Assembly: GCA_000004695.1 (NCBI GenBank)
Contig: CM000155.2
Coordinates: forward strand, 128,001-192,000
Length of the DNA: 64,000 nucleotides
From: Dictyostelium discoideum
Taxonomy: Eukaryota
Direction of reading: 5' to 3'
Shown piece after piece: positions 12,829-17,741 of this stretch; within the stretch, counting starts at the first letter, position 1; every line of letters begins with the position of its first letter. Made by a program: the position numbers and the translations under genes. The notes beneath the pieces were generated by a model. That model searched no databases and was not told the origin of the DNA. It worked only from the letters and a program-made list of their open reading frames with translations.

Positions 12829-13084
12829 ATGATTAATATGATTGATAATAATAAAGGCATCAATAAATTAGATGCAGCAATTTATTATTATCTGGTTGAA
12901 AAAGGGATGGCAAAAACAGCTCTATCATTTTCACAAGAAATGAACTTTGATATTGGTGGGCTGAGTCCACTACTCTCAAATTCATCCCATTTATTATCAA
13001 AAGGTTGGGAACAATTAAATTCAATTGGATTTTTCAATAATCAAAATATTCATATGACAAGTAGTCCAATTAGTATTAATAGCA

Positions 13085-13117
<33 letters not shown>

Positions 13118-13154
13118 GCAATGGCAATAATATTCATTTAAATAATAGTCCACC

Positions 13155-13190
<36 letters not shown>

Positions 13191-13605
13191 CAACCCGCCA
13201 AATTTCTTAGGTAACAACAATACAAATAGTAATAATAATAATAACAATAATAATAATAGTAATAATAAAAACAGCTTTTTATTTCAAAATCCAAACCAAA
13301 TAGCAAATCCTTCTTTTTTTTCATCAGCCAATCCCTCAACTAATAATATAATACCGCCAAATCCAAATCCAAATTCTAATAATAATAATACTGGTAATAG
13401 TGGAGGCTTAATTTTAGATAATTCAGCCACAAACTTTTTCCAAAATGTAAATAGTAGTGACAATAATAATAACAACAATAATAATAGTGGTAATAATGTT
13501 AATAACAATAACACGAACCAATCCATTTTTCTCTCATCTCAAAAACAACCGATTCAAACCGAACCAAAAAATAATACTAACAACACCAATAATATTAATC
13601 CAAGC

Positions 13606-13658
<53 letters not shown>

Positions 13659-15261
13659 CAGTAGCAGTAACAATACCAATAATAATAATAATAATAATAA
13701 TATTGATAATTTACAAAGTTCAATTTCATCACAATTACAATTATCATCCCCACCGTCAAGTTCCCCAATTGCAACATCAGCAATGTCCCCAAATAATTTG
13801 GATACAAACCAAATACTCCATACAATAGGGTGCAATATCGAGCATATTCACAATCAATTTTGTAATATGTTGTTTCAAAATCAAACAAATTCATCACCTT
13901 CTTTGTCTACCTCTCATACTTCAATGAACATAACTAACGAGCCAGCAAAAATTTTAGATAAAAAATCACAATTTTCAATTCAATCTCAAAATGATGATAA
14001 TAATACTACTAACAATAATAATAATAATAATATTAGTAATAATAATAATAATAATAATAATAGTAGTAATAGTAGTAATAATAATAATCATGGTAACAAT
14101 CGCAATATTCATAATCATTCACATGGACATAATCAACACAACCATGGCCATGGTCATAATCAACACAACCATGGACATAATCATGGCCATCATAATCATG
14201 GGCATGGACATAATCATGGACATCACAATCATGGCCATCATAATCATGGTCATAATCATAATCATAATCATGGTCATAATCATAATCATGGAAATCACAA
14301 TAATGGCCAAAATACTCCAATTCACAATCATTTTTCTAGTGCACCAATACCAATTGGATCTAATAATAATAATAATAATAAAACAACCACTACAACAACT
14401 ACTACAACAACAACAACGAATAGTTCATCACCAAGTGATGGAATTAATTTCAATTTAAATAGTAATAGTAGTGATGTTGAAAGTTATTTAATAAAATCCA
14501 TTGGTGAAGGAGGTGAAGAGAAATTCACATGTGACTATCAATCATGTGGTAAATCATTTAGTACATTGGCTATATTTAAACGACATTTAAAAGAACATAC
14601 TGGTTGTAAACCATTCGTTTGTACTGAAGAGGGTTGCAATAAAAGATTCTCAAGAAAATTCGACTTAAAGGTACATTTACGTTCTCATACAGGTGAAAAG
14701 CCTTATCTTTGTACATTCCCTGGTTGTAGTAAAAGATTTGCTCGTTCCTCTGATTTACGTCTTCATCAAAGAATTCATACTGGTGAGAAACCTTTTGTAT
14801 GTGATTGGGAAGGTTGTTCAAAAAGATTTATTCGTCAAGCTGATTTAAAAAAACATAGAAAAACACATCAACTTAATAATAATAATAATGCAGCAGCAGC
14901 ATCATCATCATCTTCATCATCTTCGTCACATCCACATGTTCATAGTGTTGGTTGTGGTCATACAGCAATAGCTCATGAAGGTCATATCGATTTTTTACAC
15001 GATCGCCATTTACATTCAATGAATCATGATCATGTTGATCATAGTATTGAAGTATCCGAAACCAATCCTACAAGTTGTACTCCTAAATTCGTTTGTAGTC
15101 ATCATCCTGATGGTTCTTCTCATTCAATGGATTGTGGTCATGAAATTGTTCCACATTTTGACCATTATGATTTCTTGGTCGATGGTCATCTTCATCATGT
15201 ACATGAAGGTCATTGCGATAATCATGGTTGGGTTGAAGTAATAAATAACTTTATGAAATAA
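12829..15261 (+). CDS. LisH-motif / 4x C2H2 zinc-finger nuclear protein with poly-Asn tracts, a (HGHN)n histidine-rich region and a Cys/His-rich C-terminal domain
   Basis: Continuous 810-aa ORF. N-terminal LisH-like 'LDAAIYYYLVEKGMAKTALSF'. Four tandem C-x4-C-x12-H-x3-H fingers at 'FTCDYQSCGKSF...HRKTH'. An ~60-aa run of H/G/N (14100-14320). The C-terminus has two copies of 'H.DFL.D.HLHH.HEGH'-like Cys/His motifs. Confidence 0.8.
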
Positions 15262-15652: not shown

Positions 15653-17741
15653 ATGTCAAAACTATTAAATATTATTTTTATTTTAATTTTAACAATTTCA
15701 TTTATTAATTGTCAAGAAATTATTAATATTTCAAATGGTCCAATTAGAGGTATAGTTTTTTTTTTTTTTTTTTTTTTTTAAATTATAAAAGTATTAATTA
15801 ACTAATTTATTTTAAATCAATAAAAGGTAATTCATTTGATTCACATAAAGAATTTTTAGGAATTGGTTTCGCACAACCACCAGTCGATCAACTTCGTTGG
15901 AAATCACCATTAGCACCATCACCATGGTCTGATGTTTATGATGCAACCTATGAAAGATTACCTTGTGCACAAATTTGTAATTTACCACCAGAACTTTGCA
16001 CAAATACATCAACAGAAGATTGTTTATATTTAAATGTTTTTACACCAAATATTGATTTCTCAACAATTCAAGAACCATTACCAGTTATGTTTTTCATTGC
16101 TGGAGGAAGGTATATATTTATATTTTTATATTTTTATTTTTAGGTAATTTATATAATAATAATAATAATAATAATATTATTTCAAATCATTTGTTATTAT
16201 AAATTTTTTTTTAATTTATATTTATATATAGATTTGAAATGGGAAGTGGATCAGGAGAGCTTTATAATGGAACTAAAATGGTAAATTCATCAAATATTGT
16301 TTTTGTTAGTATAAATTATAGATTAGGTATTTTTGGTATGCTTCAAACTGATACAATTTCAGGAAATTTAGCATTCGAAGATCAATTATTAGCATTGAAA
16401 TGGGTTCAACAAAATATTAAAGCATTTGGTGGTGATCCTAATCAAGTTACAGTTTTTGGTGAAAGTGCAGGTGGTACAAGTTGCGCACTTCATTTAACAT
16501 CACCAGCTTCTGCTGGTTTATTTTCAAAGATTATCATTGAATCAAATCCATGGTCTTTACCAATCAAAACAATTGATGAAGCTAAAGATTTGGCTAAAAT
16601 TTTCGCCAAAGATTTAGGTTGTGATATTAATGATAATGCTTGTCTTTACTCTAAAAATCAAGAAGAACTTTTACTTGCAATGAATATTAGTCAAAATCAT
16701 TTTAATGTTTTGGCACCACTTTTAACTTTTCTTCCATGGACTCCAGTTGTTGGTAATTATTATAATTAATAATTTTTTTTTTTTAATTCTTATTTTTTAT
16801 AATTATTAATAATTTTTTATTTTGTTATTATTATTATTATTTTAAAGATGGAGTTTTAATTACTGATCAACCATTAGCACTTATTCAAAAAGGTGATTAT
16901 AATAAAGTACCAATTATTGTTGGTACAGTTCGTAATGAAGCATTGGTTTTTGTTGCTGGTGTAAGTATAATCAATAATTATTATATTTAAATAATTTATA
17001 ATATTATTCATAATATATTAATATATTTTTTAAAAAAAGATTGCATTAGATATTAGTAAAATTGAATATATTGGTGGATTAATTGATATATTCGGACTTT
17101 CTCATGAAATAAAGATATATGAATTATATAAACCATTTATCAATGGTTCAAACTTTATGGATACACTTGGAGTAGTTGGTACTGATTATATTTTTGTTTG
17201 TCCAGTTAGAAATGCTGCAATGTATTTATCAACCAATTCAGATTTTCCGGTTTATACTTATCAATTCCAACATGTTTCAAGTTTTAATCCATACGGTAAT
17301 GGTTATGATTATTGTGCTGATCAAGTTTGTCATGGTAATTATTTTATATTGAATATATACATATATATGTTTATATTTATTAATTTTTTAAAATCAATTA
17401 TCACTTTTAATTGTGTTTATATTAATAATAATTTCATTTTATTTTATTTATTTTTTTTTTTTCATTAAGGACTTGAATTACCATATGTTTTTGGTAATGC
17501 TGGACAATATACATTTAGTGCACAAGAACAAATTTTATCAACAAATATGCAAAATTATTGGACAAATTTTGCTGTAAATGGAAATCCAAACATTGGTAAT
17601 CCAGTTAATATCCAATGGACTCAATATAGTAAATCAAGTGATGATATGTTAACTTTAGACACACCAAGTTATATGCAATCAAATTATTTAAAAAATTATT
17701 GTGATTATTGGGATTCTTTGGGTTATCAAGTTGGTTGGTAA
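15653..17741 (+). CDS. Type-B carboxylesterase/cholinesterase-family secreted esterase; 6 exons 15653..15749, 15827..16109, 16232..16752, 16848..16960, 17040..17334, 17470..17741
   Basis: Signal peptide 'MSKLLNIIFILILTISFINC'. 'EDCLYLNVF', nucleophile elbow 'FGESAGG' and 'VPIIVGTVRNE' are present. All splice junctions were checked for GT..AG and phase. Exon translations are contiguous with esterase family order. Confidence 0.75.

Follow-up and report, generated by a model that had tools for sequence, protein, structure and literature searches.

We find that the gene at positions 12829–15261 (forward strand) of a 64,000-nucleotide stretch of the Dictyostelium discoideum genome (contig CM000155.2, positions 128,001–192,000; the whole stretch is hereafter called the window) encodes an 810-residue protein in which four tandem C2H2 zinc fingers are followed by a His/Cys/Asp-rich C-terminal domain shared with a large family of bacterial proteins. 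We propose that this protein is a metal-responsive C2H2 transcription factor whose activity would be set by the metal occupancy of the C-terminal domain, most likely by Zn(II), and we give this reading an even chance. That the domain binds metal is considerably more probable; zinc as the metal and transporter genes as the targets are less certain. Metal sensing by the amoeba protein is what we infer from these comparisons.

A metal-responsive factor had been suggested in an earlier note, made from the DNA letters alone, which stressed a long His/Gly/Asn tract in the protein. The suggestion itself gains strong independent support from bacterial gene context, domain fusions, and conservation, but the tract is not the decisive argument. 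The decisive feature is the C-terminal motif pair, because it belongs to a complete conserved domain shared with bacterial proteins that are encoded in zinc-sensor and zinc-transporter loci and are repeatedly fused to ArsR/SmtB regulators.

A duplicated C-terminal domain of bacterial type

The C-terminal domain, proposed here as a metal-binding sensor module, spans residues 701–810 (14929–15258, + strand). Internal and family alignments divide it into two repeats, one at residues 701–739 (14929–15045, +) with the pattern H-x-H-x3-C-G-H-x4-H-x2-H-x-D-F-L-H-x2-H-L-H...H-x-D-H, and one at residues 759–799 (15103–15225, +) with the pattern H-x3-C-G-H-x4-H-x2-H-x-D-F-L-V-x-G-H-L-H-H-x-H-x2-H-C-D-x-H. 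Both C-terminal motifs quoted in the earlier note are present exactly, at residues 710–729 (nucleotides 14956–15015) and 769–801 (nucleotides 15133–15231), and their relatedness reflects a real internal duplication: the local alignment score is 98, whereas 500 composition-preserving shuffles gave 39.6 ± 7.5 and never exceeded 70. The note had also proposed comparing residues ~700–810 with metal-binding domain families. None was matched: the domain and its bacterial members have no family and no solved relative, by sequence or by fold, in Pfam, NCBIfam, or PDB.

Searches of residues 701–810 against 5.8 billion proteins recovered 117 relatives, with E-values down to about 1e-29, 50–61% identity, and ~95% coverage. 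Nearly all of these are stand-alone proteins of ~115 residues labeled "hypothetical," and since the alignments run from end to end, at 50–62% identity, the amoeba segment corresponds to one whole bacterial protein. The family comprises 465 representatives at 50% clustering (phmmer, 1.84 billion representatives) and no fewer than 3010 clusters at 90%; its members are spread over at least 576 species genomes in many phyla, including Proteobacteria, Acidobacteria, Planctomycetes, Myxococcota, Actinobacteria, Gemmatimonadota, Nitrospirota, and others. Plasmid copies are found in Pantoea, Paraburkholderia, Pediococcus, Enterococcus, Cupriavidus, Vibrio, and Streptomyces.

An alignment of 109 sequences reveals that 31 of the 110 domain positions hold ligand-type residues conserved at 80% or more, namely 21 His, 5 Cys, and 5 Asp/Glu, and that 23 of these 31 are also kept in ten eukaryotic versions. 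The family consensus is a doubled H-x-H-x3-C-G-H-x4-H-x2-H-x-D-[FY]-L...H-L-H-H-x-H-x2-H unit, with the two units linked by an N-P-x2-C element and the domain ending in H-C-D-x-H-G. Residues 701–800 of the amoeba protein have all of the family-core positions, each of which is invariant or at least 90% conserved in the family alignment. An AlphaFold2 (AF2) model of the domain is all-beta, with a predicted local distance difference test score (pLDDT) of 84 and a predicted template modeling score (pTM) of 0.78, and the domain probably represents a new metal-binding fold.

The window protein is best classed as a domain-level member of this family and not as an orthologue of the stand-alone bacterial gene. 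The stand-alone form of ~115 residues beside ArsR/SmtB or Fur genes is absent from the amoeba window, where the domain is the C-terminal part of the 810-residue protein.

Genomic context and fusions of the bacterial family

The bacterial context was surveyed across 84 non-redundant loci, using seed proteins from four annotated loci and ten metal-related neighbor families. At the four annotated loci, the gene is flanked by an ArsR-type HTH_5 gene directly upstream and a Fur-family gene directly downstream, and genes for ZIP, CDF, ZnuABC-type (ABC-3/ZnuA), Nramp, and P-type ATPase proteins lie no more than a few kb away. Over the whole survey, an ArsR/SmtB gene lies immediately upstream on the same strand, at 81 nucleotides or less, in 39 of the 84 loci. 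Fur-family genes are adjacent in 9 loci and within 5 kb in 21, and transporter neighbors include ZnuC-like (15 loci), ABC-3 (8 loci), and ZnuA-like (7 loci) genes. RefSeq annotation agrees with this picture: on plasmids of Pantoea and Pediococcus, the gene pair is labeled "ArsR/SmtB family metalloregulator" and "hypothetical protein," in that order, and in Paraburkholderia a zinc ABC transporter and a GTP-binding protein are encoded divergently from the gene.

All 39 neighboring ArsR proteins carry the alpha5 signature D-x-H-x10-H-x2-[E/H], with Glu at the last position in 38 of them. In SmtB (Asp104, His106, His117, and Glu120) and in CzrA, this signature forms the alpha5 regulatory metal site; it marks the Zn/Co/Ni-sensing branch of ArsR proteins and is not common to the whole family.

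Fusion of the domain to a complete ArsR domain within a single open reading frame (ORF) is seen in six or more different proteins (L014/P0408, L020, L022, P0135, P0392, and P0482). One transporter fusion was found, in which the domain follows the C-terminus of an ABC-3 (ZnuB-like) permease (P0246). The top match of the profile search, a metagenomic bacterial protein of 228 residues (P0390), carries the whole domain tandemly doubled, with four H-x-H...CGH repeats. Several other bacterial ORFs owe their apparent length to naive ORF calling in GC-rich DNA; these were not counted as fusions, and P0063 (L001, 6001–6582) was likewise left out as it contains only the C-terminal half of an ArsR domain. 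Its counterpart in a related genome (L008) has ArsR and the His-rich domain as separate adjacent genes, and P0063 is possibly a frameshift or an assembly error.

Taken with the smtB–smtA paradigm, the simplest reading of an operon in which the family member (X) follows an alpha5-type ArsR gene suggests that X is made under metal excess and binds the metal. The ArsR-X and permease-X fusions suggest a further role in cis, with the domain as a regulatory or antenna module that binds metal. The family is probably a part of bacterial metal homeostasis that has so far been missing, and literature searches found no description of it or of a His-rich protein downstream of SmtB. The comparison exposes a large uncharacterized bacterial family with tight links to SmtB-type sensors, to regulators of the Fur family, and to zinc transporters.

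Zinc fingers and conservation among Amoebozoa

The four C2H2 fingers announced in the earlier note are confirmed by Pfam PF00096, which matches four zf-C2H2 stretches at residues ~566–680 (14524–14868, + strand) with 62.9 bits against a cut-off of 25.2. The first Cys pair of each finger is of the C-x4-C type, HTGEKPY/F linkers are seen between fingers, and the nearest solved relatives are DNA-bound arrays such as ZNF568, YY1, WT1, ZNF410, GLI, and TFIIIA. The array is accordingly predicted to be the DNA-binding module of the protein.

Conservation of the C-terminal motif pair in other Amoebozoa, which the earlier note had named as a check, was borne out: the domain and the overall architecture are found in Dictyostelium purpureum (82% domain identity), Physarum, Nematostelium, and Cavostelium. 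The D. purpureum orthologue is a 644-residue ORF (L094, 3933–5867; GL871078.1) with its parts in matching order. The domain is conserved there nearly as well as the fingers (87% identity), whereas low-complexity regions other than the N-terminus are 0–36% identical. The annotated D. purpureum protein, DICPUDRAFT_34225 (288 residues), includes the fingers and the C-terminal domain and is without the LisH-like start and the His-rich tract; this public model looks 5'-truncated, because the uninterrupted ORF has 644 residues.

Beyond the dictyostelids, the best two matches of the exhaustive scan are eukaryotic, one from a metagenome (P0118) and one from Physarum polycephalum (P0119), both with 65–66% identity. 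Further eukaryotic members are found in Nematostelium gracile (P0186), Cavostelium apophysatum (P0212), and metagenomes (P0144, P0146, P0158, P0233, and P0272). C2H2 fingers and the domain, the latter at or close to the C-terminal end, occur together in at least nine eukaryotic proteins. The eukaryotic members have diagnostic finger sequences in common, e.g. F[AS]RK[YF]DLK[VIM]H, read directly from the proteins, and a LisH-like start is common to those with a complete N-terminus. A profile search with the eukaryotic sequences only gave no further named eukaryotes, the best 120 matches listed being all of bacterial type.

In D. purpureum, Physarum, P0118, and P0272, the domain starts ~5–10 residues past the last finger (e.g. 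THEVHEGHHPH and THQVQDSNHPH), and D. discoideum has an extra 18-residue N/A/S insertion between the two. A neighbor-joining tree of the domain (112 columns) recovers two amoebozoan clades, with 95% and 99% bootstrap, that are joined at only 2%. A single ancient fusion is favored by the shared architecture; the domain tree cannot confirm it.

Variant arrangements were seen among the metagenomic sequences. In four eukaryote-like proteins (P0158, P0219, P0245, and P0250) the halves of the domain lie 150–250 residues apart; the spacer is Cys-rich in P0219 and P0245 (CCSGK... and CCGG...), and P0158 and P0250 also carry C2H2 fingers. In P0195 (358 residues), the domain is followed by a weak bZIP-like region (bZIP_1, 19.6 bits, E = 0.001, cut-off 27.6) which, if real, would add a third type of DNA-binding partner. 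P0233 (307 residues) has a 20-residue hydrophobic insertion, VLVNYLQFHLIYNLYIFTISKK, within domain repeat 2 that resembles a short intron left unspliced in a eukaryotic contig.

Proposed mechanism and alternatives

In the mechanism we propose, the LisH-like N-terminus would serve in oligomerization or co-regulator recruitment, the four fingers would bind DNA sequence-specifically, and the duplicated beta-rich domain would bind several metal ions through ~21 His, 5 Cys, and 5 Asp/Glu. Given the short distance between the last finger and the domain in D. purpureum, Physarum, and P0118, metal loading is proposed to alter DNA binding, activation, or stability. Cytosolic metal status would thus be coupled to the expression of target genes, presumably those of ZIP and ZnT transporters, and the His/Gly/Asn tract could add low-affinity metal binding.

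Several points weigh against this proposal. A ligand-rich domain could be purely structural, and literature searches found no experimental study of any family member. About 30–35 of the 84 bacterial loci have none of the ten seed neighbor families within ~5 kb, and the Fur-family neighbors score far below the equivalog cut-offs when compared with NCBIfam Zur. The alpha5 class of ArsR sensors includes Ni and Co sensors, which bears on the choice of zinc as the metal. The domain tree leaves the amoebozoan clades apart, so that one acquisition or two would both fit it, and the neighbors of the gene in the window, including a methyltransferase and a carboxylesterase, have no metal link, though this is expected in a eukaryote.

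Among the alternatives, the one that survives best takes the domain as a constitutive structural zinc module, used for interaction or dimerization, in a factor that regulates non-metal (e.g. developmental) genes and is not under metal control. The AF2 model fits this idea, being a compact, confidently folded beta domain like many structural zinc modules, and so does the company the protein keeps, since the 103 dictyostelid C2H2 factors are mostly uncharacterized and many are developmentally regulated (PMC6873476). We nonetheless regard it as unlikely: it leaves unexplained why the domain is found as a stand-alone protein beside an alpha5-type sensor in 39 of the 84 loci, and why it is fused to ArsR and to a ZnuB-like permease.

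More doubtful still is a domain that senses another signal—i.e. nickel/cobalt, copper, pH through His protonation, or redox state through Cys. NmtR and KmtR are Ni/Co sensors of the alpha5 class, a ligand set dominated by His is also suitable for Ni(II) and Co(II), and a few bacterial loci point the same way, with a DUF4198 gene upstream at one Pseudomonas locus, Nramp and DtxR-type genes close by in L001 and L008, and a PCu(A)C copper chaperone gene near one Paraburkholderia locus. Set against these are the SmtB-type form of the signature, D-x-H-x10-H-x2-E, in 38 of the 39 neighboring ArsR proteins, the recurrence of ZnuABC, ZIP, and CDF transporters, and the ZnuB-like identity of the permease in the single transporter fusion.

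A metal store or buffer—a metallothionein-like sink that in the amoeba would protect the fingers or hold a local zinc reservoir without any switch—is very improbable, for despite the likeness of the arsR-X layout to the smtB–smtA sensor/metallothionein gene pair, the tandemly doubled P0390, and the lack of reported classical metallothionein activity in Dictyostelium (10.1101/356949), the copy number of a transcription factor is too low to buffer cellular metal, and an Amoebozoa-wide architecture with the domain near the last finger fits regulation better than storage.

Our preferred reading, a metal-responsive finger protein, can be extended. The domain would then be an ancient, previously undescribed family that senses metal, probably zinc: a stand-alone partner of SmtB-type sensors in hundreds of bacterial species, independently recruited as the ligand-sensing module of ArsR proteins in bacteria, of C2H2 proteins in Amoebozoa, and possibly of a bZIP protein in another eukaryote. 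The window gene would encode the master regulator of zinc homeostasis in Dictyostelium and its relatives. We put this forward tentatively and consider it less probable than not by some way. If true, the protein would fill the vacant place of a Zap1 or MTF-1 equivalent, with a domain of bacterial origin as its building block, and the recurrent joining of one small domain to various DNA-binding scaffolds would illustrate neatly how sensors evolve by modules.

The His/Gly/Asn tract

The tract stressed in the earlier note covers residues 421–493 (14089–14307, + strand) and is encoded by an imperfect minisatellite, as had been described, with a length of ~73 residues and not ~60. A 75-residue stretch spanning it contains 33 His, 21 Asn, and 13 Gly. 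Its DNA consists of imperfect tandem repeats with periods of 12, 15, 27, 33, and 72 and 70–80% matches, at 14121–14331; the repeat string quoted previously has one-mismatch copies at 14170 and 14203 and 0 matches in shuffles.

The D. purpureum orthologue has a His/Gln/Gly tract, (HQ)n/(HG)n, of ~42 residues at the corresponding position, with a peak of 25 His per 60 residues compared with 31 in D. discoideum. The compact homologue P0272 (390 residues) has no His tract in its sequence. Thus, position and His richness are kept between the two species, but the sequence and length of the (HGHN)n tract are not. The tract is the least conserved part of the protein and a non-defining one.

It is quite conceivable, if somewhat short of an even chance, that the (HGHN)n tract is a neutral product of replication slippage, like the adjacent poly-Asn, and has no metal role. 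The minisatellite nature of its DNA, the different tract of D. purpureum, and the tractless P0272 all agree with neutral slippage. By contrast, D. purpureum keeps both the position and the extreme His density amid unconserved flanking low-complexity sequence, the Physarum protein has a His-rich stretch upstream of its fingers, and a Polyangiales homologue (L066) has an (HDHDHGG)n tract directly before the domain. The last, from a Polyangiales metagenome-assembled genome (L066, 4566–5339), is an N-terminal His/Asp/Gly tract that parallels the amoeba His/Gly/Asn tract.

N-terminus and a short Cys/His island

The LisH motif claimed in the earlier note lies at residues 14–37 (12868–12939, + strand). 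The motif region is present, but its assignment is borderline: with a gathering threshold of 21.6 bits, Pfam PF08513 scores 17.5 on the full protein and reaches 21.3 when the N-terminus is searched by itself. When a profile of five orthologous N-termini was compared with PDB, it matched only the LisH/LUFS domains of SSBP2/SSDP (E = 0.003–0.02). The motif is kept in Physarum, Nematostelium, Cavostelium, and D. purpureum, with weak Pfam matches in the orthologues. The N-terminal 70 residues are 40% identical between D. discoideum and D. purpureum, and the LisH core is much closer, as read directly from the alignment. A dimerization or co-regulator module is the probable identity of this motif.

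Alignment with D. purpureum also reveals a Cys/His motif, C-N-I-E-H-I-H-N-Q-F-C, at residues 335–345 (13831–13863, + strand). CNIEHIHNQFC has the pattern C-x3-H-x-H-x3-C and pairs with CNIDHIHNHLC of D. purpureum. The 30-residue block around it is 53% identical between the two species, compared with 27% for the preceding 250 residues, and the 70 residues that follow have no aligned counterpart (0% identical). This motif may be an additional metal-binding or interaction site.

The gene and its surroundings

The gene is a complete single-exon ORF (12829–15261, + strand), uninterrupted from its ATG start through 810 codons plus the stop codon, and is flanked on both sides by AT-rich spacers of 11–19% GC. 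The start codon matches that of the D. purpureum orthologue, whose N-terminus, MMIDNRLDVAIYYYL, aligns there. The exact 810-residue protein had no identical entry in the protein collection searched. Bacterial contamination is rejected, because the domain is fused in frame to eukaryotic fingers within an AT-rich ORF and is conserved in D. purpureum. The other ORFs within 12829–15261, on the minus strand or out of frame, are low-complexity artefacts.

Elsewhere in the window, a methyltransferase ORF at 11014–11991 (− strand; Methyltransf_11, E = 7e-19) has a frame that continues into a long poly-Leu encoded by simple repeats, and its true 3' end is probably an exon boundary or an earlier point. 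The halves of a GPR180/TMEM145 transmembrane domain lie on two adjacent ORFs at 8448–9910 (− strand), which therefore represent one gene split by an intron. A carboxylesterase fragment at 16239–16769 (+ strand; COesterase positions 116–287 of 515) is clearly a single exon of a larger gene.

Relation to known metal regulators

Dictyostelium is a standard model for the zinc poisoning and starvation of bacteria within phagosomes. The earlier note had named no such regulator for social amoebae, and our literature searches likewise found no metal-responsive factor of Dictyostelium and no description of the gene or of DICPUDRAFT_34225. Published work reports no detectable classical metallothionein in Dictyostelium and names no metal-responsive transcription factor (10.1101/356949). 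The Dictyostelia have 103 C2H2 proteins, dictyostelid transcription factors mostly have little beyond their DNA-binding domain (PMC6873476), and a biological role is known for only ~38 of these factors (PMC12714135). The window gene is therefore put forward as a concrete candidate for a metal-responsive regulator, conserved from Dictyostelia to Myxogastria and protosteloid amoebae.

The proposed functional analogue is the fungal zinc activator Zap1/ZafA, which likewise unites a C2H2 array with His/Cys-rich zinc-responsive regions in a single chain. Zinc sensing in Zap1, a seven-finger protein, goes through AD1 and the ZF1–ZF2 pair. By contrast, the window protein has four fingers and no match to Pfam Zap1_zf1 (PF21816) at E ≤ 1, and the domain that would serve as its sensor is beta-rich, bacterial in type, and unrelated.

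Regulators that place a short Cys/His-rich zinc-binding element beside the DNA-binding domain, where it switches activity, include Arabidopsis bZIP19/bZIP23 and Schizosaccharomyces pombe Loz1. The C-terminal domain similarly lies within ~5–10 residues of the last finger in D. purpureum, Physarum, and P0118. However, the DNA-binding folds or finger numbers differ, the window protein has no bZIP domain, and the sensor motifs of bZIP19/23 and Loz1 are short and unstructured, in contrast to a folded domain of 110 residues with bacterial homologues.

Among bacterial systems, the smtB–smtA operon and SmtB/CzrA-type ArsR proteins offer a parallel layout, with the bacterial homologues of the domain directly downstream of, or fused to, sensors that have the alpha5 site. 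The amoeba protein differs in having no HTH_5 match, and the alpha5 site belongs to the bacterial neighbors and fusion partners. Metallothioneins are small, with ~15–30% Cys and essentially no aromatic residues. Unlike such a partner, the X protein is His-rich and not Cys-rich: the domain fails the metallothionein composition, with ~5 conserved Cys and 21 conserved His per 110 residues and conserved Phe/Tyr. A bacterial family member may work like a metallothionein without being one.

At its other end, the window protein resembles LisH (LUFS) proteins of the SSBP/SSDP, LEUNIG, and Flo8 type, with a pair of LisH-like helices at the N-terminus and a Trp-containing segment after it. The match is marginal (E = 0.003, and just under the Pfam threshold), and those proteins have neither C2H2 fingers nor the C-terminal domain.

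MTF-1 combines C2H2 fingers with a separate C-terminal metal-binding Cys cluster that tunes the metal response in Drosophila (PMC2396432). The window protein also pairs fingers with a separate C-terminal cluster, here a putatively metal-binding one. MTF-1 has six fingers and a short Cys cluster, whereas the window protein has four fingers and a His-dominated, duplicated domain of 110 residues; it has no CxCxC-type cluster and no detectable sequence relationship to MTF-1 outside the fingers. What is new in the amoeba protein is probably the sensor module, which is of bacterial type, and the kind of regulator it builds is probably a known one, namely a metal-responsive finger protein.

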